Shown here: positions 7,692-30,747 of the stretch, piece after piece | Layout: every line of letters begins with the position of its first letter | How positions within the stretch are numbered: the stretch's first letter is position 1 | Origin: Candidatus Scalindua sp. | GTDB taxonomy: Bacteria; Planctomycetota; Brocadiia; Brocadiales; Scalinduaceae | Length of the DNA stretch: 32,000 bases | Assembly (NCBI GenBank): GCA_031316235.1 | Contig: JALDRA010000001.1 | Span: forward strand, 1,080,001 to 1,112,000 | Direction of reading: 5' to 3' | Notes under the pieces: model-generated | Told to the model about the DNA's origin: nothing | What the model saw: only the letters and a program-made list of their open reading frames with translations | Database searches by the model: none | Program-made: the position numbers and the translations under genes

Positions 7692-8087
7692 TTACTTAGC
7701 ACCTTTCTCTCTGTAATTTTTAATCGCAGCCTCAATAGCTTCCTGAGCCAAAACGGAACAGTGCATCTTATTTGCTGGCAAACCATCTAAAGCTTCTGCA
7801 ACAGCCTCGTTTGTAATCTGCAAAGCCTCTTCCATTGTCTTCTCCTTTATCATCTCAGTTGCCATACTGCTCGTCGCAATAGCCGCGCCACAACCAAAAG
7901 TCTTAAATTTAGCATCTGTAATTTTATCATCTGCTACTTTGATGTAGAGCCTCATCACATCACCACAAGCCGGATTACCTACCGTCCCGACAGCATCGGC
8001 ATCCGTTATTTCACCCATGTTCCGGGGGTTCATAAAATGATCCATCACTTTTTCACTATAAGGACCAGCCATCTCTTCGTTTGCCAT
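7692..8087 (-). CDS. iscU: IscU/NifU-like Fe-S cluster scaffold protein
   Basis: Three scaffold cysteines sit in the expected contexts (GNPACGDVM, FKTFGCGAAIATSS, MHCSVLA). The track start at 8105 is TTG. The ATG at 8087 lies 8 nt after an AAGGGAG RBS. Confidence 0.85.
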   Translation of the reverse strand: MANEEMAGPYSEKVMDHFMNPRNMGEITDADAVGTVGNPACGDVMRLYIKVADDKITDAKFKTFGCGAAIATSSMATEMIKEKTMEEALQITNEAVAEALDGLPANKMHCSVLAQEAIEAAIKNYREKGAK

Positions 8088-20562: not shown

Positions 20563-20617
20563 TATACTCATCTCATACTGGATTTCGGATAAAATCCGAG
20601 AAAAAATTGAGCGAGTA
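20563..20617 (+). repeat. 55-nt structured repeat, copy 1
   Basis: 51/55 identical to 20806-20860. It contains the hairpin TCGGAT-AAA-ATCCGA (20585-20599), and the outer arms TATACTC/GAGTATA can pair. Confidence 0.85.
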
Positions 20618-20649
20618 TACCTTCACCAGGATTTGATTCCCGGTAAAAC

Positions 20650-20674
20650 CGAAAACCAAATCGGTTTTAGTATA
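20650..20674. repeat. 25-nt hairpin module CGAAAACCAAATCGGTTTTAGTATA
   Basis: Identical to the reverse complement of 16085-16109. A related copy lies at 20948-20971 (TAAAACTAAATCAGTTTTAGTAGA). Confidence 0.8.
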
Positions 20675-20805
20675 TTCTGTTTTTATGCCGTAAGGATTCC
20701 TCTGACCAGGTTGGTACCGCTTCAAACCCGCCTGCCGTTTGTGGAGCAGGAAATGTGTATTTTAACCATTGCAAAATGCATAATCAACCATTAACATTTT
20801 AAAAG

Positions 20806-20860
20806 TATACTCAACTCGTACTGGATTTCGGATAAAATCCGAGAAAAAACAGAGCGAGTA
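20806..20860 (+). repeat. 55-nt structured repeat, copy 2
   Basis: 51/55 identical to 20563-20617, with the same central hairpin at 20828-20842. Confidence 0.85.
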
Positions 20861-21053
20861 AGGTCCTCGGCACGTTTTTGTCCGGGAAAAGTCCTCGGCG
20901 TCTGGTCCGGGGATACCGGCAACCAGGCTTTGGTTTTTAGAAAAATCTAAAACTAAATCAGTTTTAGTAGAGTATTTTTATTCATCGTGCTGCCAGGAGT
21001 TCGACCATAAAGAACGTGGTATCTGACACACGATATGAGGAGAAAAGATTTTC

Positions 21054-22142
21054 ATGAGAAATATAACCGATTTCGTAAAGAGCGCCTGGATCAGGCAATT
21101 GAAGGAAGATTGGAAATCCGCCAACTACAATTACTTTAAAAACTCCATGCGCCTGCCAAACCTTGAACTTTCAGATTCAGAGAGAACTCTCGGGAAATGG
21201 AGGGGTGGCTGCTACCGGTGCCTCACCGTCAGTACCCGCTTAATCAATACCTGCCACTGGGAATTAGTTCAAGATGTCCTCCATCATGAAATGGCTCATC
21301 AATACGTGGAAGAAGTCCTGGGCATACGCGACAGCAAACCTCACGGAGAGGTGTTTAAGAAAATCTGCAGGGAACACGGTATTGATCCTGCAGCAACAGG
21401 AGAAATAGAACCCTGGATAGAGGAGAGAAAAAACAGAACCACTCTTTTTCCTGAAAACCATGCGTTACTGGACAAGGTGCATAAACTTCTTGCGTTGGCA
21501 CAAAGCCCCAATGAACACGAGGCTCAGAATGCCATGACCAAGGCCCACGAATTACTGTTACGCCACAACCTCTCCCTGTCAGATATGCAGACCAGAGGAA
21601 ACTACATCCATAGACAGATCGGAGCGGTAGGCAGAACAAATCCCATCAAGTCCATTATCAGTGCCATGATCTGCAAATTCTTCTTTGTGGAAGCAGTTTG
21701 GACATTTGGTTACGACCAGCAGAAAAATCGAAGCGGCAGAGTTCTGGAAATTTACGGGACACCGGAAAATGTTGAGATGGCCGAGTATGTGTATGACTAC
21801 CTCCAAAACATTTCGGAACTTTTATGGGAAGAGCACCGGGAACAGAAAAAATTAAACGGAAATAGACATCGCCGGACTTTTATCTATGGCGTCCTGAACG
21901 GTTTCTATCGAAAGCTGGACAGCCAGGTGATTGAAAACCAGACTAAATCCCTCGTCTGGATGGGTGACCCGCGGCTCAGGGAGTTTTTCCACCGGAGAAA
22001 CCCCAAGCTCGTACGGACCTCCTCCCGGTATACGAAAAGTTGCCAGGACACCTACAATTCAGGAATTACCCAGGGGAAAAACCTGGTCATCCACAAGGGC
22101 ATTCATGATAATGGCAACGGGGAAGTTAAATTATTGACATGA
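21054..22142 (+). CDS. SprT-like zinc metalloprotease fused to a DUF2786-like domain and an uncharacterised C-terminal half
   Basis: HEMAH zinc motif at 21285-21299 in an SprT-like context (...LGKWRGG...LLHHEMAHQY...KPHGEVFKKIC). A DUF2786-like helix pair follows (LLDKVHKLLALAQSPNEHEAQNAMTKAHELLLRHNL). A GAGGAG RBS lies 11 nt upstream of the ATG. The stop codon overlaps the next gene's start (ATGA). Confidence 0.75.
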   Translation: MRNITDFVKSAWIRQLKEDWKSANYNYFKNSMRLPNLELSDSERTLGKWRGGCYRCLTVSTRLINTCHWELVQDVLHHEMAHQYVEEVLGIRDSKPHGEVFKKICREHGIDPAATGEIEPWIEERKNRTTLFPENHALLDKVHKLLALAQSPNEHEAQNAMTKAHELLLRHNLSLSDMQTRGNYIHRQIGAVGRTNPIKSIISAMICKFFFVEAVWTFGYDQQKNRSGRVLEIYGTPENVEMAEYVYDYLQNISELLWEEHREQKKLNGNRHRRTFIYGVLNGFYRKLDSQVIENQTKSLVWMGDPRLREFFHRRNPKLVRTSSRYTKSCQDTYNSGITQGKNLVIHKGIHDNGNGEVKLLT

Positions 22143-25048
22143 TAGATGAATTTATCAACAACCTGAAAAAACTCAAGGACTTCAAGAGACAGATCGTCCA
22201 TCACAAAACTATCACGTCAAGGGTTGCAACCTGCCGGGAGCTGGTACCGCCCCTCCCCCCTCCGTTACAAAAGGCATTGAAGCATTTCCGGATCACAAAA
22301 CTTTACCACCATCAGGCAGAAGCCATAACCAGGGTGAGGGAGAGAAAAAATGTCATCATTGCGACACCCACCGCATCAGGAAAAACGCTCGCGTACAACA
22401 TCCCTGTACTGGAATCTATCCTGAATGAACCGGAATCCAGGGCATTCTACCTCTTTCCCATTAAGGCCCTTGAACAGGATCAACTGAGGGGCCTCAAGAA
22501 ACTTATCTCCGCTCTTGAGGGTGATGGCATCACCGCCGCAATCTATGATGGAGATACCACTGCGTATAAAAAAAAGAAACTCAGAGAAAATCCACCAAAC
22601 ATCATCATTACCAATCCGGATATGTTCCACTCCAGTTTCCTGCCGTACCATTCCAGCTGGAACGATTTCTTTCACAACCTGAAATTTATCGTAATTGACG
22701 AACTCCACACGTATCGAGGTGTTTTCGGGTCGCACATTGCCCAGGTATTCAGACGCATCAACCGTATCGTGGAACACTATGGAGGATCCCCTCAATACAT
22801 TGCCTGTTCGGCTACGATCCCAAACCCTGAAGAATTTGCGAGCACCTTGACAGGGCTTCCCTTTGAAGTGATTGGTACCAGCGGGGCCCCGGAGCCGGTT
22901 CGTCATTTTCTCTTCGTAAACCCGGCCGAGAGTCCCTATACGGAAACCGTCTTATTAATTAAGAGACTTTTAGAGCATAATCTCAAGGTCATAGCCTTTA
23001 CAAAATCAAGAAAGATAACGGAACTGTTGCATACATGGCTTATCCAGCAGAATCCGGCGTTTGCACCGTACGTCAGCTCGTACCGTGCCGGCTTCCTCCC
23101 GCAGGAGAGACGCACCATAGAAAAGGATCTCTTTGAAGGAAGGATTAAGGCGGTCATATCGACAAGCGCTCTTGAAGTAGGCATTGATATAGGTGGTCTC
23201 GACGTCTGCATTCTTGTCGGCTATCCGGGTACCATCATAAACACATGGCAGAGGGGCGGAAGAGCAGGCCGGGGAGACAGCCCTGCCCTCATTATACTTA
23301 TGGCGCAGCACGACGCCCTGGATCAGTATTTCATGAAAAACCCGGAAGATTTTTTTGCCCGGGGATGTGAGAATGCTGTTCTGGATCCCTTTAATAAACC
23401 TATCCTGAAGGCGCATCTTCCCTGTGCGGCCGCTGAACTTCCAATCTCACCGGCAGAACATCTCTTTGATTTCCCAAGGATAGCTCCCGCCCTTGAAGAG
23501 CTCGTACATTCTGGAGAACTGCTCAGGGGAGAGGCAGACGGGAGCTATTTTTCATCACGGAGAAGGCCCCACCGTTTTGTCGATATTCGATCGATTGGTG
23601 AAGGGTACACGATCATGGAAAAAGGGACAAAACAGATCATTGGCCAGGTTTCCGGTTTCCGGGCATTTACCGAATGCCATAAGGGCGCCATATACCTGCA
23701 CCGGGCATCTCAATACCAGGTGGATTCAGTGGATATTGAACGCAGAAACATCCTGGTACAGAGGCACGAGGTCTCCTATTTCACGCGGCCAAAGAGCGAG
23801 AAAGAGACCGAGATCAGAGAGGTTACCGGATCGAAGCCCGTTGGAAATTTTATTGTAAGAAAAGGCACTATCAAGGTGACTGAAATCGTTACCGGCTACG
23901 AAAAAAGGAGCGTACGGGGGCAGATTCTTCTGAGCCGTCACCCCTTAGATCTCCCCCCACTTATGTACGAAACGGTTGGCCTCTGGATAGAGATCATACA
24001 AGAGATTGAACTCTCGGTAAACACTATGGGCCTGCACTTTATGGGCGGCATACATGCTATCGAACACGCCGTAATCTCCCTGTTTCCTCTCTTTGTCCTC
24101 TGTGATAGAAATGATATCGGGGGAATATCTACCACGTTCCATCCCCAGGTAAAAAGAGGTGCGATCTTTATCTATGACGGATACCCCGGTGGGGTGGGAC
24201 TGAGTGAACGCGGTTATGACTGCATCGAAGAAATCCTGACCGCAACACTCAAACTGGTGTCATCGTGTGAGTGCGAAACAGGGTGCCCTTCATGCATCCA
24301 CTCACCCAAATGTGGTTCGGGAAACAAACCGCTGGACAAGGGGGCAGCTATCGAAGTGCTTGAACAGCTCCTGGCAATAAAGCCCTTAAGTCCCGGGAGC
24401 ATTCCCGATACGGCCGTAACAGAAATCCCCGGATTACAGATGCCAGGAACCGGGATTGATGCGATTCCAAGGAGAAGGATATGCTACTTTGATCTGGAAA
24501 CCCAGCGCGGCGCTGATGAAGTTGGGGGCTGGCGCAATATTCACCTTATGCGGCTGGCCCTGGGTGTCATCTACGACTCTCTTGATGATGCATATCATAC
24601 CTATTTTGAAAAGGATGTGGGCAGATTGATTGAAAAGCTCAGGTCTGCAGACCTGGTAGTGGGCTTCAACGTGATCAGGTTTGATTACACCGTCCTTCAA
24701 CCATACACGATTCACGATTTACAGAAAATTAAAACATTCGACATCCTGGCAGACATCCACACAAGACTGGGATACCGCCTGAGCCTGAACCACCTTGCAA
24801 TGAGGACACTTAAGGTTGAGAAAACAGCTGACGGCCTCCAGTCTCTCAAGTGGTTCAAAGAGGGCAGGATAGACGAAATAGCCCATTACTGCAGTAAAGA
24901 TGTGGAGATCACGAGAGACCTTTTCCTCTTTGGCAACACAAACCGATATCTCCTCTTTGAAAAAAAGGATTGCGGAATCGTGAGACTCCCCGTGGAGTGG
25001 GAAGTTGAAGATATTATCAGGGAGAGGGAGAACCCCGGGAAAAAGTGA
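22139..25048 (+). CDS. MrfA/YprA-type SF2 DEAD/DEAH helicase with a DUF1998 Zn module, fused to a C-terminal DEDDh (RNase H-fold, MrfB/YprB-like) exonuclease
   Basis: Helicase motifs: Walker A ATPTASGKT (22361-22387), DELH (22697-22708), SAT, TSALEVGIDIG and QRGGRAGR (23249-23272). Four-Cys cluster CECETGCPSCIHSPKCG begins at 24266. Exonuclease motifs: FDLET (D at 24491, E at 24497), GFNVIRFD (D at 24683) and HYCSKD (H at 24884, D at 24899). Confidence 0.9.
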   Translation: MIDEFINNLKKLKDFKRQIVHHKTITSRVATCRELVPPLPPPLQKALKHFRITKLYHHQAEAITRVRERKNVIIATPTASGKTLAYNIPVLESILNEPESRAFYLFPIKALEQDQLRGLKKLISALEGDGITAAIYDGDTTAYKKKKLRENPPNIIITNPDMFHSSFLPYHSSWNDFFHNLKFIVIDELHTYRGVFGSHIAQVFRRINRIVEHYGGSPQYIACSATIPNPEEFASTLTGLPFEVIGTSGAPEPVRHFLFVNPAESPYTETVLLIKRLLEHNLKVIAFTKSRKITELLHTWLIQQNPAFAPYVSSYRAGFLPQERRTIEKDLFEGRIKAVISTSALEVGIDIGGLDVCILVGYPGTIINTWQRGGRAGRGDSPALIILMAQHDALDQYFMKNPEDFFARGCENAVLDPFNKPILKAHLPCAAAELPISPAEHLFDFPRIAPALEELVHSGELLRGEADGSYFSSRRRPHRFVDIRSIGEGYTIMEKGTKQIIGQVSGFRAFTECHKGAIYLHRASQYQVDSVDIERRNILVQRHEVSYFTRPKSEKETEIREVTGSKPVGNFIVRKGTIKVTEIVTGYEKRSVRGQILLSRHPLDLPPLMYETVGLWIEIIQEIELSVNTMGLHFMGGIHAIEHAVISLFPLFVLCDRNDIGGISTTFHPQVKRGAIFIYDGYPGGVGLSERGYDCIEEILTATLKLVSSCECETGCPSCIHSPKCGSGNKPLDKGAAIEVLEQLLAIKPLSPGSIPDTAVTEIPGLQMPGTGIDAIPRRRICYFDLETQRGADEVGGWRNIHLMRLALGVIYDSLDDAYHTYFEKDVGRLIEKLRSADLVVGFNVIRFDYTVLQPYTIHDLQKIKTFDILADIHTRLGYRLSLNHLAMRTLKVEKTADGLQSLKWFKEGRIDEIAHYCSKDVEITRDLFLFGNTNRYLLFEKKDCGIVRLPVEWEVEDIIRERENPGKK

Positions 25049-26500: not shown

Positions 26501-29296
26501 ATGACCAGAAACGAAGCACAAACAAGAAAAGAGATAATTGATAAACGGCTCAAGGTTGCCGGATGGGATGTCATGGATCCTTCACAGGTAACACAGGAAC
26601 TTGATATCTGGGTTGGTCTACAGCAGGGAGTAAGAGAACCGCAGACTCCTTATGAAGGTCATCTTTTTGCGGATTATGCCCTTCTCTCGAAAGAGGGCAG
26701 GCCGGTAGCGGTTGTTGAAGCAAAGAAGACATCAGTTGATGCTGAAATCGGAAAAGAACAGGCACGAAATTATGCAGAAAAGATCCAGAAAGCCAGGGGC
26801 GGTCCCATGCCGTTTGTTTTCTACACAAATGGTTACGATATCTTTTTCTGGGATACTGAACAATACCCACCGCGAAAGGTATTTGGCTTTCCCACTATTG
26901 CCGATTTAGACCGTATACGGTTTCTGCGGCAAAACAGCAAGGTCCTCTCCAGTGAGTTGATTAATACCGATATCGCAGGGCGTCCTTATCAGATCCAGGC
27001 AATTCGTTCTGTGCTCGAACGTGTTGAGAAAAAGCACCGGAAGTTTCTTCTGGTTATGGCGACCGGTACAGGGAAAACACGCGTCTGCATGGGGCTTTTA
27101 GATGTACTCATGCGTTCCAACCGGGTTCAGAAGGTGCTGTTTCTTGTAGATCGAATTGCTCTCAGGGAACAGGCGCTAGAAGCCTTTAAGGATCATTTGC
27201 CTAACGCGCCGGTATGGCCTAAGACCGGCGCGGTAAAGTTTGCCCCTGACAGGCGCGTTTATTGTACGACATATCCAACCATGCTCAACCTGATACAGCA
27301 GGAAGAGTGCCCCCTCAATCCTCACTATTTCGACATGGTTGTCGCCGATGAAAGCCATCGGTCAATTTATAACGTCTATAAGAATATCTTTGACTATTTT
27401 GACGCTATTCAGCTTGGCCTGACAGCCACACCGACGGACGCAATAGAACATAACACCTTTCAATTGTTTGACTGCGAAGACGGCCTGCCGACATTTGCTT
27501 ATTCTTATGAAGAAGCCATTAACAACATTCCACCGTATTTATCCGACTTTGAAGTGCTGAAATTACGCACCAGGTTTCAGCAGGAAGGGATAAACAGTAA
27601 GACTATAGCTGAAGCCGAAAAGAACAGGTTGATCCAGGATGGTGAGGATCCGGATGAATACAATTTTGAAGGAACGGAACTCGAAAAGAGAGTCACCAAC
27701 AAAGGGACGAATGCGGTTATTGTGCGCGAATTTATGGAGGAGTGCATAAAGGATCCAAATGGTGTCTTACCCGGGAAGACGATATTCTTTGCCATCTCTA
27801 AAAAGCACGCTTACCGGCTATGCGAAGTATTCGATGCCTTTTATCCTGAATACAGGGGGCAACTTGCGGAAGTTATTATTTCAGGCTTTAAAGGTGTTCA
27901 TGGTAAAGGAGGTATTCTTGACCGCTTTAAGACAAAAGATATGCCCCGCATTGCCATCAGCGTGGATATGCTAGATACCGGCATTGATGTGCTTGAGATT
28001 GTGAACCTTGTCTTTGCCAAACCGGTGTTTTCCTATACGAAATTCTGGCAGATGATTGGGCGTGGTACGCGTGTGCTTGATCCGAATAAGATAAAACCGT
28101 GGTGTCCTGAGAAAGGTAAGTTTCTGATCATAGACTGCTGGGAAAATTTTGAATATTTCAGAATGACTCCGAGAGGAAAAGAGTCAAAAGGAACACGCCC
28201 ACTCCCGGTAAGACTTTTTGATGCTCGGCTTGAAAAATTATTTGTATCTCAACAGAAAGAAGATGAAACTGTTGGGCAGAAGACAGTCCGTACAATAAGA
28301 AAAGATATTACCGCGTTGCCGAGGAACTCCGTTGTTATTTTAGATAATCAACAGTGTCTGGAAAAGGTAACGGATGACAATTTCTGGATACAGGTAACAG
28401 AGGAGAAGCTTGATTATCTGCGCATGCACATAAGCCCGCTTATGCGTGTACTGTCAGATGCAGATTTTAAGGCTATGCATTTTGAGCTGGATGGGGTTGA
28501 TGCCCAGACTGCTCGATTGGCTGGCGATGATGCGCGATATGAGGCCCTGAAAGAAATCATCATTGAGAAGGTCGGCGAACTGCCACTGACCGTGAATGTT
28601 GTTGAACGTGAGCGGGAATGGATCGAGAAGGTACAGTCAAATCATTTCTGGATAACGGCATCAGACGATGCCCTTGATGAGATGATTGTGCGTCTTGCAC
28701 CTCTTATGAAATACCGGCAGACACAAATAACTCCTGAGAAGAAGCTCAATATTCAGGACCTTATCACAGTGAAAGAGACAATTGAGTTTGGTCCTCAGCA
28801 TGAACGAATGACCGTTGATAAATACCGGCGTAAGGTTGAAGGCTTTATTCGTGAGCTTGTAAAAACAAACCCTGTGCTTCAGAAAATTGTCCAGGGAGAT
28901 GCTGTGGATGATGAAGAAATAGAGGGATTGGCAGATATTTTAAAAGAACACTATCCTCATGTGACAGAGTATATCTTACAGGAGATTTATGATAACAAGA
29001 GCGTGAAGTTCATTCAGTTTATTAAGCACATTTTAGGCATTGAAGAGATAGCTACCTATACTGAGACCGTATCTGTTGCCTTTGATGACTTCCTGCGTGA
29101 ACACAACACCTTTGGTGAGAAGCAGATACAATTCATCCTGACCATTAAGACATTTATTCTTCACCGAGGTTCTGTGGAGAAAAAGGACCTTATACATGCC
29201 CCATTTACACAACTGCACCCACAGGGTATTCGCGGCATTTTCCCTCCGAGTGAAATCGAAGAAATTCTTGGTTTTATACAGGAAATTGGGGCATAA
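26501..29296 (+). CDS. hsdR: type I restriction enzyme R-subunit-like protein (HsdR: N-terminal PD-(D/E)xK nuclease, SF2 translocase, EcoEI-R-type C-terminal domain)
   Basis: N-terminus NEAQTRKEIIDKRLKVAGW. Nuclease motif D (26672) ... EAK (26717-26725). Walker A MATGTGKT (27056-27079), DESH (27347-27358), LTATP and QMIGRGTR. The C-terminal helical region resembles the EcoEI R C-terminal domain. Confidence 0.85.
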   Translation: MTRNEAQTRKEIIDKRLKVAGWDVMDPSQVTQELDIWVGLQQGVREPQTPYEGHLFADYALLSKEGRPVAVVEAKKTSVDAEIGKEQARNYAEKIQKARGGPMPFVFYTNGYDIFFWDTEQYPPRKVFGFPTIADLDRIRFLRQNSKVLSSELINTDIAGRPYQIQAIRSVLERVEKKHRKFLLVMATGTGKTRVCMGLLDVLMRSNRVQKVLFLVDRIALREQALEAFKDHLPNAPVWPKTGAVKFAPDRRVYCTTYPTMLNLIQQEECPLNPHYFDMVVADESHRSIYNVYKNIFDYFDAIQLGLTATPTDAIEHNTFQLFDCEDGLPTFAYSYEEAINNIPPYLSDFEVLKLRTRFQQEGINSKTIAEAEKNRLIQDGEDPDEYNFEGTELEKRVTNKGTNAVIVREFMEECIKDPNGVLPGKTIFFAISKKHAYRLCEVFDAFYPEYRGQLAEVIISGFKGVHGKGGILDRFKTKDMPRIAISVDMLDTGIDVLEIVNLVFAKPVFSYTKFWQMIGRGTRVLDPNKIKPWCPEKGKFLIIDCWENFEYFRMTPRGKESKGTRPLPVRLFDARLEKLFVSQQKEDETVGQKTVRTIRKDITALPRNSVVILDNQQCLEKVTDDNFWIQVTEEKLDYLRMHISPLMRVLSDADFKAMHFELDGVDAQTARLAGDDARYEALKEIIIEKVGELPLTVNVVEREREWIEKVQSNHFWITASDDALDEMIVRLAPLMKYRQTQITPEKKLNIQDLITVKETIEFGPQHERMTVDKYRRKVEGFIRELVKTNPVLQKIVQGDAVDDEEIEGLADILKEHYPHVTEYILQEIYDNKSVKFIQFIKHILGIEEIATYTETVSVAFDDFLREHNTFGEKQIQFILTIKTFILHRGSVEKKDLIHAPFTQLHPQGIRGIFPPSEIEEILGFIQEIGA

Positions 29297-29628: not shown

Positions 29629-30747
29629 ATGTTTAAAGCTGGAACGTACAAACAACGATATGAATATAAAAGTTTTTTGCCATCTTTCATTAATAAGGAT
29701 TATGAGTGGAAAGACAGGCAGATAGTACTTTTACTTGAGGAAGCTATGTGGTATTTAGGTGAGCTTAACGCTTATTCTGCGCTTGTGCCTGATGCAGACT
29801 TTTTTATTCAAATGCATGTTGCCAAGGAAGCGACGACTTCAAGCCGTATTGAAGGCACAAGAACAAACATTGATGAAGTCGTCCTGCCGGAGAGCGAAAT
29901 CAGCCCGGAGAAAAGAGATGACTGGGCCGAAGTGCGAAACTATATCAATGCCATGAATTACTCTATTAGGCAACTTGAAAAACTTCCTTTATCCATGCGG
30001 CTTTTAAAAGAAGCCCATAGGAAGTTGTTGTCAGGGGTACGCGGCCAGAGCAAATTGCCCGGAGAGATTCGGCGAAGTCAAAACTGGATTGGCGGTTCAA
30101 GCGTAAAAGATGCTCTCTTTTTTCCACCGCGCCATGAGGATTTATCGGATTTATTGACCGATCTTGAAAAGTTCTGGCACAATCGAGAACTCAATATCCC
30201 AAACCACATAAAGCTTGCTATCAGCCATTATCTGTTTGAAACAATTCACCCGCTTCTTGACGGTAACGGCAGAATAGGAAGGCTGCTTATCACGTTGCAG
30301 CTTGTTGATATGACTATTTTAAGGAAACCGTGTCTGTATCTTTCCGACTTTTTTGAAAGGAACAAGGGCTCGTATTATGACGCACTTACTGTGGTACGGG
30401 GTTCTCATGATCTGGACCAGTGGATAAAATTTTTCTTATCAGGAGTGATTTCAACCGCCATGAACGGGAAAGCTACTCTGGAAGCGATCGTAATCCTGAG
30501 AAAGCGATATGAAGAGAGAATCATGACATTAGGGAGAAAAGCCAGGACAGCACAGAATTTCCTGCTTTATCTCTTCTCAAGCCCGATTGTTTCCATCAAT
30601 CAGACGGCGGAATATCTCAATGTGGGTTTTGCCGCCGGTTCAAGAATGATCGCTGATTTTCAGCGGTTTGGTTTTTTAAAAGAGGTAACAGGTTTTTCAA
30701 GAAACAGATTATTCGCTTTATCTGAATATTTAGGTTTGTTTAAGTAG
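29629..30747 (+). CDS. Fic-family protein (AMPylase-type) with an N-terminal inhibitory helix and a probable C-terminal wHTH
   Basis: Fic active-site motif [12 protein letters not shown] (30247-30282). The intramolecular inhibitory motif S-x-x-x-E-G (SSRIEG, 29839-29856) lies upstream of the Fic core. Confidence 0.9.

Follow-up and report, generated by a model that had tools for sequence, protein, structure and literature searches.

Gene 1 and gene 2 are best explained as two independent genes of catalogued types, which are neighbours by descent from the ancestor of one Scalindua subclade and belong to one transcript here. The probability of this reading is estimated at about 75%. The genes lie in the window, i.e., the whole analysed stretch of 32,000 nucleotides from Candidatus Scalindua sp. 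Gene 1 encodes a protein that carries a SprT-like, a DUF2786 and a DUF7168 domain. Gene 2 codes for a YprA-family SF2 helicase (MrfA type) whose C-terminal domain is a DnaQ-fold exonuclease. Both reading frames, their ATGA overlap and the HEMAH motif, all claimed in an earlier note on this DNA, are present (Table 1).

Table 1. Position of gene 1, gene 2, their domains and the upstream repeat in the window.
Feature	Position	Strand	Details and basis
Composite repeat, two copies	20563..20979	.	Intergenic, upstream of gene 1; context, outside both genes
Gene 1	21054..22142	+	362 aa; ORF and Pfam domains; all three domains shared by full-length homologues
SprT-like (Spartan-fold) Zn-metalloprotease domain	21111..21374	+	aa 20-107; Pfam PF10263, E 2.8e-10
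HEMAH motif	21285-21299	+	HExxH of gene 1
Third His, H97	21342-21344	+	SprT-like domain of gene 1
DUF2786 helical hairpin	21465..21575	+	aa 138-174; Pfam PF10979, E 1.4e-13
DUF7168 alpha/beta domain	21627..22004	+	aa 192-317; Pfam PF23771, E 1.9e-22
C-terminal tail of gene 1, basic and predicted to be disordered	22005..22139	+	pLDDT, charge
ATGA overlap	22139..22142	+	Stop codon of gene 1 / start codon of gene 2
Gene 2	22139..25048	+	969 aa; MrfA/YprA-type helicase with a fused 3'-5' exonuclease domain; ORF and Pfam
SF2 helicase core	22307..23272	+	DEAD aa 57-232, Helicase_C aa 274-378; Pfam
HRQ1/MrfA winged-helix domain (WHD_HRQ1)	23384..23596	+	aa 416-486; Pfam PF22982, E 1.4e-10
MZB (DUF1998) Zn-binding domain	24059..24298	+	aa 641-720; Pfam PF09369, E 2.1e-25
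DnaQ-fold exonuclease, DEDDy type	24476..25003	+	about aa 780-955; D785, E787, D849, Y917, D921

The co-occurrence of the two genes was surveyed in both directions. Relatives of gene 1 were considered at 80 genomic loci (Brocadiales, Nitrospinota, Myxococcota and others), 64 of which have at least 3 kb downstream. Gene 2 is present at one of these 80 loci (L001), and the gene of a 199-aa isochorismatase is found there exactly at the junction between gene 1 and gene 2. For gene 2, 80 metagenomic loci were considered. The exonuclease is fused to the helicase at about 33 of them, and 62 extend 1.2 kb or more upstream; no gene 1-like ORF was found within 5 kb at any of them (gene 1 profile, E≤1). 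The coupled two-gene module proposed in the earlier note is thus not borne out by the survey. Gene 1 and gene 2 adjoin each other in one Candidatus Scalindua subclade only: L164 (Scalindua sp. AMX11), L081, L083 and L001. In S. japonica the pair is absent and gene 1 is adjoined by DnaJ and housekeeping genes. No helicase was found in the 1.2 kb downstream of gene 1 on the S. rubra contig, and there is no gene 1 near P0126, a gene 2 homologue at 69% identity. In other genomes the neighbours of gene 1 or gene 2 are unrelated housekeeping genes.

Within the subclade, the junction was kept although the identity has fallen to about 83% for gene 2 and to about 77-85% for gene 1. It is homologous in L083 and L081, the ATG being changed to CTG in L081, and it is broken by the inserted gene in L001. 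No promoter or terminator signal was found between the two genes in the window. The 4-nt overlap implies that gene 1 and gene 2 are co-expressed here, not that they are obligate partners. Nevertheless, since the overlapping junction is kept despite the divergence, a functional coupling in that Scalindua lineage is possible. In such a case, the subclade would have recruited the protease and the helicase-exonuclease into one transcription unit in which they cooperate: the protease would cut a DNA-protein crosslink down to a peptide adduct, after which the strand that bears this adduct would be unwound by the helicase and removed by the tethered exonuclease. The 4-nt overlap, the junction kept in L083, L164 and (with an altered start codon) L081, the Spartan fold of gene 1 with its intact HExxH...H site and basic tail, and the occurrence of umuDC, SRAP, LexA or Tag downstream of gene 2 in relatives are in line with a repair operon of this type. 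It is however unlikely: (i) the pair is not co-conserved beyond one subclade, in either direction; (ii) L001 tolerates an unrelated gene between gene 1 and gene 2; (iii) both families are overwhelmingly stand-alone; (iv) plain vertical synteny would give such an adjacency among genomes this close.

Gene 1 is, according to its profile and structural model, a predicted protease of the SprT/Spartan fold, as the earlier note had supposed; the DUF2786 that the note reported is also recovered by Pfam. The SprT-like domain scores 40.4 bits, against a Pfam cut-off (gathering score) of 25.6. No variation is seen at H78, E79, H82 and H97 among 21 homologues. The profile of the gene 1 family matches SPRTN (6mdx) with E 7e-4, the HExxH and the third His being aligned. 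The best PDB matches of the gene 1 model by Foldseek are SPRTN 6mdx and 6mdw (probability 1.0). For 6mdx_A, the E-value is 1.3e-2 with probability 1.0 and TMt 0.46; this E-value is modest because only one third of the model aligns. The DUF2786 is modelled as two helices (133-148 and 154-177). The tail has pLDDT <50 at aa 323-330 and 341-362, and the net charge of aa 301-362 is +6 (family median +8, with pI 10.6). The C-terminal part of about 180 aa, given as unassigned in the earlier note, is in fact Pfam DUF7168 and, together with DUF2786, equals the phage family phrog_421.

SPRTN/Spartan and Wss1 are eukaryotic DNA-dependent proteases for DNA-protein crosslinks. The HExxH of gene 1 and the third His, about 15 residues downstream, align with H111/E112/H115/H130 of SPRTN. 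However, just about 95-117 residues of gene 1 align, with 17-20% identity and a TM of 0.42-0.46 (target-relative). In Pfam and PDB searches, which did not single out the zinc-binding subdomain, SHP, PIP and UBZ of SPRTN, no match to SPRTN regions beyond the protease domain was obtained. The C-terminus of gene 1 consists instead of DUF2786-DUF7168 and the basic tail. E. coli SprT belongs to the same Pfam family (SprT-like) as gene 1, but the architecture of gene 1 is not the same. Gene 1 as an orthologue of E. coli SprT was rejected: it reaches 18 bits with NF003421 (NCBIfam), for which the equivalog cut-off is 175. The C-terminal half resembles phrog_421, i.e., stand-alone phage and plasmid DUF2786-DUF7168 proteins: the last 230 aa of gene 1 align with it end to end (E 6e-33), and also match proteins of about 220-260 aa from phages AR9 and PBS1, Mu-like phages and large plasmids. 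These proteins, unlike gene 1, have no protease domain, and no phage or plasmid record covering at least 80% of gene 1 was found.

Gene 1 matches 569 clusters (clustering at 50% identity) with E≤1e-30. Its best cluster matches have nearly all 335-400 aa and align end to end. It is conserved across the anammox genera Scalindua, Kuenenia and Brocadia, and its relatives occur also in Nitrospinota, in Myxococcota (where they are common) and in others. Gene 1 is thus a member of a large stand-alone family with a fixed architecture and a constant length. Its domains suggest a protease that may be tethered to a nucleic acid or to a partner protein. A more specific proposal is that the whole gene 1 family would act on DNA-protein crosslinks as a bacterial DNA-dependent protease, an activity to which the basic disordered tail lends only indirect support. 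In the Scalindua clade, it would then share one operon with an MrfAB-type helicase-exonuclease removing the peptide remnant. This proposal is quite improbable.

The helicase part of gene 2, including the four-Cys DUF1998, is as described in the earlier note. DEAD and Helicase_C are found by Pfam with E 9.8e-34 and 8.4e-14, respectively. In 17 homologues, the residues of helicase motifs I (Walker A GKT, K82), II (DELH, D187-E188-L189-H190), III (S224/T226) and VI (Q371-R378) are invariant, and so are C710, C712, C716 and C719 (plus C725). Residues 17-722 of gene 2 match residues 19-732 of B. subtilis YprA/MrfA (PDB 6ZNP_A) with E 1.3e-150. More than 100 fused full-length homologues of 955-1030 aa have 52-59% identity, and only a handful of close homologues (>70% identity) exist.

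The C-terminal domain of gene 2 is a DnaQ-fold exonuclease. In Pfam, PF01612 (DNA_pol_A_exo1) gives a weak match (E 4.6e-6, aa 840-929), and PF13482 (RNase_H_2) reaches E 2.2e-4 and 21.7 bits, just below its cut-off of 22. A precomputed PF13482 match is present in many gene 2 homologues; we take this Pfam family to be that of YprB. D785, E787, D849 and D921 are invariant, and the last motif is Y917-x3-D921. Residue 917 is Tyr in 16 of 17 homologues and the neighbouring H916 is not conserved; the exonuclease is thus of DEDDy type and not DEDDh. The exonuclease and its DEDD acids announced in the earlier note therefore stand, while the DEDDh assignment is replaced. The AF2 model of this domain has a pLDDT of 91.9. 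By Foldseek it matches the proofreading domains of T7 and family-B polymerases with probability 1.0, 4FLU being among the matches. 4FLU is also named among the closest structural relatives of MrfB in the paper on the MrfB structure.

Gene 2 resembles both members of the B. subtilis MrfA/MrfB pair. It shares with MrfA the domains DEAD, Helicase_C, WHD and four-Cys MZB, and its C-terminal DnaQ fold has the same structural neighbours as MrfB, i.e., family-B polymerase proofreading domains. The differences are the following: (i) MrfA and MrfB are two proteins in B. subtilis, whereas gene 2 codes for a single polypeptide; (ii) the fifth catalytic residue is His258 in MrfB and Tyr (Y-x3-D) in gene 2; (iii) no C-terminal TPR domain was found in gene 2 by Pfam, the protein ending about 48 residues past D921; (iv) the exonuclease profile of gene 2 gives no sequence match with the MrfB structure 8UN9, even at E≤10. 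Among the YprA helicases, fusions with MrfB-like nucleases are on record from the DNA-repair branch, MrfB-associated and MrfB-fused helicases being placed in this branch, apart from the defence branch (Bell et al. 2025). The helicase-exonuclease fusion of gene 2 is thus already known. Gene 1 and gene 2 together probably do not form a new two-gene system either, contrary to what had been suggested: elsewhere, each is nearly always found without the other.

Gene 2 may be considered as a single-chain form of the MrfA/MrfB excision-repair pair. By analogy with the B. subtilis proteins, its helicase would translocate 3'→5' on single-stranded DNA and its exonuclease would act 3'→5'. The strand with a bulky lesion would be unwound by the helicase and degraded by the tethered nuclease, independently of UvrABC. 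From this likeness, it is natural to suppose that gene 2 takes part in repairing bulky adducts.

The YprA family also contains defence helicases, and the earlier note had considered an uncharacterised anti-mobile-element system. In this scenario, invading DNA would be the target of the helicase-nuclease, as it is in DISARM, Druantia or Dpd, and the protease would serve as a sensor or an effector. DrmA/DrmB of DISARM, DruE of Druantia and DpdF/J of Dpd have in common with gene 2 the YprA-family SF2 core and the DUF1998/MZB ancestry, and the PADLOC helicase models BrxHI, SngC, DruE, DrmA and DpdF/J match gene 2. But most of these matches do not extend beyond the SF2 core (aa ~43-400) that all have in common. 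Four stretches are matched by the DruE1 model, of which the best (aa 335-428), the only one reported, also falls in the core. Gene 1 has no match to any PADLOC model. No DISARM, Druantia or Dpd partner gene is present, and the nucleases of these systems are PLD or other, in contrast to the DnaQ-fold exonuclease of gene 2. MrfA, a repair helicase, is matched far better than anything else, across 700 residues, and the literature places the MrfB-associated or MrfB-fused helicases on the repair side. As for the context, the genes downstream of gene 2 in the window comprise those of an orphan type I HsdR and of a SoFic-like protein (full-length, E 1.5e-105), and the homologue at L082 adjoins an integrase-bearing element. 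However, fused homologues are surrounded by housekeeping genes, and in the relatives the neighbouring positions are held by repair genes and not by defence genes. A defence function is thus highly improbable, and the reading as two independent genes of catalogued types is retained.

The genes near the pair in the window code for a DAG kinase, a HicB-like protein, the orphan HsdR, the SoFic-like Fic protein and a GIY-YIG protein. The variable part (HicB-like, HsdR, Fic and GIY-YIG) starts after gene 2. Gene 1, which is conserved across anammox genera, is therefore not the first gene of an accessory island as had been thought. In relatives, DNA-damage genes are found downstream of gene 2: L081 has umuDC, SRAP and LexA, L001 has umuDC and SRAP, and L164 has Tag. 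This local cluster of DNA-damage genes could be under common control, and gene 1 and gene 2 plausibly act on damaged DNA.

The GC content of gene 2 (0.49-0.51) is somewhat above that of its flanks (0.43-0.46). The repeat upstream of gene 1 is made of two units, both of which occur twice; the 55-nt unit has 93% identity between its copies and the 58-nt unit 74%.

Gene 1, which encodes an SprT-like/DUF2786/DUF7168 protein, and gene 2, which encodes an MrfA/YprA-type helicase joined to an exonuclease, are found exactly as claimed in the earlier note, including the ATGA by which the two ORFs overlap. In the public annotation of a Candidatus Scalindua sp. MAG, gene 1 is a "SprT-like domain-containing protein" and gene 2 a "DEAD/DEAH box helicase". 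The public gene 2 entry is 100% identical, and a protein of the gene 1 family is encoded on the same contig under the adjacent accession number; the window is therefore from an anammox planctomycete. No promoter-like or terminator-like signal was found at the boundary of the two genes in the window; they are thus probably co-transcribed, a claim limited to this lineage. The two copies of the composite repeat upstream of gene 1 share a 55-nt unit (93% identity) and a 58-nt unit (74% identity), and have a MITE-like look. The lexA and umuD promoter regions of relatives are filled with similar AT-rich repeat elements.

Features of the window, of gene 1 and of the loci used for comparison
Feature	Position	Remarks
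Composite repeat, two copies	20563-20682 and 20806-20979	513-nt intergenic region upstream of gene 1
Gene 1	21054..22142 (+)	362 aa
SprT-like domain	aa 20-107 of gene 1	Pfam
DUF2786	aa 138-174 of gene 1	Pfam
DUF7168	aa 192-317 of gene 1	Pfam
ATGA	22139-22142	common to gene 1 stop codon and gene 2 start codon
Gene 2	22139..25048 (+)	969 aa
Orphan type I restriction R subunit	26501-29296	PADLOC REase_I, E 4e-163
SoFic-like Fic protein	29629-30747	full-length match to the single-gene defence protein SoFic, E 1.5e-105; beside orphan R subunit
Isochorismatase-family gene	L001 9152-9751	199 aa
umuC-umuD, SRAP gene	L001 14343-16989	downstream of gene 2
Start region of gene 2	L081 about 7875-7905	
HicAB, umuC-umuD, SRAP (YedK/HMCES-like) gene, lexA	L081 11056-16622	downstream of gene 2
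Tag glycosylase gene	L164 11336-11908	downstream of gene 2
Helicase-exonuclease in two ORFs	L167 1135-4070	687 aa and 293 aa
Stand-alone DUF2786-DUF7168 protein	KU878088.1 2543-3217	phage record
Stand-alone DUF2786-DUF7168 protein	MZ568828.1 6535-7200	phage record
Stand-alone DUF2786-DUF7168 protein	NZ_CP151101.1 239186-239911	plasmid; other plasmids too

The two genes had been proposed to form a coupled module, and this was judged by their co-conservation in other genomes, the decisive test and one that the earlier note had named. The gene 1 alignment was scanned over one genome per species, and 80 loci were kept together with up to 8 kb of flanking sequence per side (Brocadiales, Nitrospinota, Nitrospirota, Myxococcota, Latescibacterota, Gemmatimonadota and others); in 64 of them the sequence continues for at least 3 kb downstream. 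Gene 2 was sought in these loci by tblastn with its helicase part and its exonuclease part, and is present in 1/80, i.e., in a Scalinduaceae MAG (L001) whose gene 1 is 86% identical. Conversely, metagenomes were scanned with the fused-helicase alignment, which yielded 80 gene 2 loci (36-56% identity), about 33 with the fused exonuclease and 62 with at least 1.2 kb upstream. The profile HMM of gene 1, which recovered gene 1 in three positive controls, found nothing at E<=1 among all six-frame ORFs of these loci (0/80). The neighbours elsewhere are housekeeping genes without relation to the pair, conserved within genera only: gene 1 is accompanied by radical SAM, RluA, Ser/Thr kinase and MetH genes, gene 2 by genes for an ABC-F ATPase and for a ComF-like protein. 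Clustering of the neighbours for conserved partners of either gene gave only clade-local housekeeping synteny. The coupled-module proposal is without support from comparative genomics: the survey shows the pairing to be a local coincidence in gene order, which should therefore not be catalogued as a system.

Besides the window, the adjacency is seen in Scalindua sp. AMX11 (L164) and at two further loci, L081 and L083. In S. japonica, gene 1 (71% identical) is localized amid DUF547, DnaJ, CopD and McsAB-ClpC genes and gene 2 is not adjacent; on the S. rubra contig, no helicase was found in the 1.2 kb downstream of gene 1. The next-closest homologue of gene 2 (69% identical) has a rotamase gene upstream and an integrase gene downstream, and is not adjacent to gene 1. 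Homologues of gene 2 above 70% identity are a handful, the named sources all belonging to the same Scalindua subclade. The GC content of gene 2 is slightly above that of its flanks. In the simplest history, the helicase-exonuclease gene would have been placed beside a gene 1 already present in the subclade ancestor, and the arrangement then inherited; the junction would have changed later, by an insertion in one member and by loss of the ATG in another. The isochorismatase-family gene of L001 sits exactly at the junction, and the start context of gene 2, TTGACATGAT, is kept on its far side. In L081 the ATG of gene 2 is CTG (ACATGATAG to ACCTGATAG), so the gene caller puts the start 33 codons downstream.

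The three Pfam domains of gene 1 each score above the gathering threshold. Across 21 aligned homologues (36-85% identity), H78, E79, H82 and H97 do not vary. Searched against the PDB, the family profile matched human Spartan (6mdx, E 7e-4) with the HExxH and the third histidine aligned. The AlphaFold2 model (mean pLDDT 77.5) is best matched by Spartan 6mdx and 6mdw (probability 1.0), then by minigluzincins; the modelled N-terminal domain is thus inside the SprT/Spartan fold. Orthology with E. coli SprT was ruled out (18 bits vs. a cut-off of 175). The C-terminal half, formerly described as unassigned, is DUF7168, above the Pfam gathering score, and therefore a catalogued domain of unknown function. 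The last 60 residues or so are basic (net +6 vs. a family median of +8) and mostly modelled with low confidence (pLDDT <50 at aa 323-330 and 341-362). No PADLOC model exists for gene 1. Its family, nearly constant in length, comprises 569 clusters (50% identity, E<=1e-30), and gene 1 is kept in Scalindua, Kuenenia and Brocadia (63-94% identity). The family is catalogued but uncharacterised.

The reading of gene 2 as an SF2 helicase with a four-Cys domain and a C-terminal exonuclease holds. Pfam gave DEAD, Helicase_C, a winged helix of the HRQ1 type and the Zn-binding domain of MrfA; residues 17-722 align with the solved structure of B. subtilis YprA/MrfA (E 1.3e-150), and among 17 homologues none of the helicase motifs varies, nor do C710, C712, C716 and C719. 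The last 190 residues or so have a weak Pfam match to DNA_pol_A_exo1, with RNase_H_2, which we take to be the YprB family, just under threshold. Against the PDB, the sequence of this domain gave only a weak Pol I match (E 0.016) and its profile only chance matches. In fold, its confident model (pLDDT 91.9) matches polymerase proofreading exonucleases (T7 and family B), 4FLU included. The MrfB structure paper names 4FLU among the closest structural relatives of MrfB. The catalytic residues are D785, E787, D849 and D921. The domain had been labelled DEDDh; however, the fifth residue is Y917, four positions before the last Asp (Tyr in 16/17 homologues), while the neighbouring H916 is not conserved in the 17 homologues. 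Judged from this conservation, the exonuclease is of the DEDDy type. According to the structure paper, MrfB has His258 where gene 2 has Y917, and a TPR domain that gene 2 lacks.

The fused protein is represented by more than 100 clusters (955-1030 aa, same domains, 52-59% identity) in Desulfobacterota-like bacteria, KSB1, Nitrospinota and other bacteria. This helicase-nuclease architecture is common and already known; the fusion is described by Bell et al. 2025. It must be noted that one Nitrospinota cluster (that of protein P0129) appears split into ORFs of 327 aa and 642 aa, on 33 and 26 contigs respectively, and that a Scalindua read assembly (L167) also has two ORFs: a recurrent frameshift, an assembly error or a real split.

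Gene 2 is followed in the window by a HicB-like antitoxin, the orphan HsdR, the full-length SoFic-like Fic and a GIY-YIG protein; a variable, defence-flavoured stretch therefore starts downstream of gene 2. The PADLOC models BrxHI, SngC, DruE, DrmA and DpdF/J match gene 2, largely through the shared SF2 core, and none of the partner genes of these systems was found in the window. HsdM and HsdS for the orphan R subunit are also absent from the window. At the same position, close relatives have many genes with DNA-damage functions; HicAB, umuDC, SRAP and LexA, or Tag glycosylase, are encoded there. The repair genes at this position and the near-orthologous MrfA match favour DNA repair as the role of gene 2. 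An operator common to gene 1, lexA, umuD and SRAP, as SOS control might entail, was sought as palindromes with 4-6 nt arms and a 0-12 nt spacer (window, L001, L081 and L083); no palindrome occurred in at least four upstream regions, which by eye are full of unrelated repeat elements.

The domain content, catalytic residues and fold of gene 2 are established. By analogy with B. subtilis MrfA and MrfB, its product would translocate 3'->5' on single-stranded DNA and unwind the lesion-bearing strand, which the tethered 3'->5' exonuclease would then degrade independently of UvrABC. In gene 1 the zinc site, of the Spartan type, is intact and the three-domain architecture is constant; the product is a putative protease that may be tethered, through its C-terminal module and basic tail, to a partner or to nucleic acid. 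Cooperation of the two genes specific to this lineage is possible, with roughly one chance in eight to ten. Taken as the earlier note proposed it, a protease-helicase-nuclease operon would have suggested a bacterial equivalent of crosslink repair by Spartan, or else a new defence system. In sum, the genes and domains of the earlier note stand with two corrections, and its coupled module is not supported. Two results are of modest value: gene 2 is a clean example of a single-chain MrfA-exonuclease with Tyr for the His of MrfB, and the gene 1 family is a large, uniform and entirely uncharacterised set of Spartan-fold proteases. The latter, on its own, is a more interesting experimental target than the pair.

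The literature search found no paper on DUF1998 together with SprT and none on DUF7168; DUF2786 has few mentions, as table entries only (e.g., in an interactome table). Compared with PDB folds, the whole gene 1 model gave no match for its DUF2786-DUF7168 part, and a viral structure library gave only uncharacterised phage proteins. A protein search with the C-terminus alone led back to essentially the one family, without new architectures. The phage family phrog_421 matches the C-terminal 230 residues from one end to the other (E 6e-33), and none of the phage or plasmid records covers gene 1 over its whole length. The C-terminal module also circulates alone on phages and plasmids, as proteins of about 220-260 aa (jumbo Bacillus phages, Mu-like phages and large plasmids). 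Such stand-alone DUF2786-DUF7168 proteins (phrog_421) are encoded by the jumbo Bacillus phages AR9 and PBS1 and a Mu-like Shewanella phage; the large plasmids that carry them are from Nostoc, Acinetobacter, Clostridium botulinum and Klebsiella.
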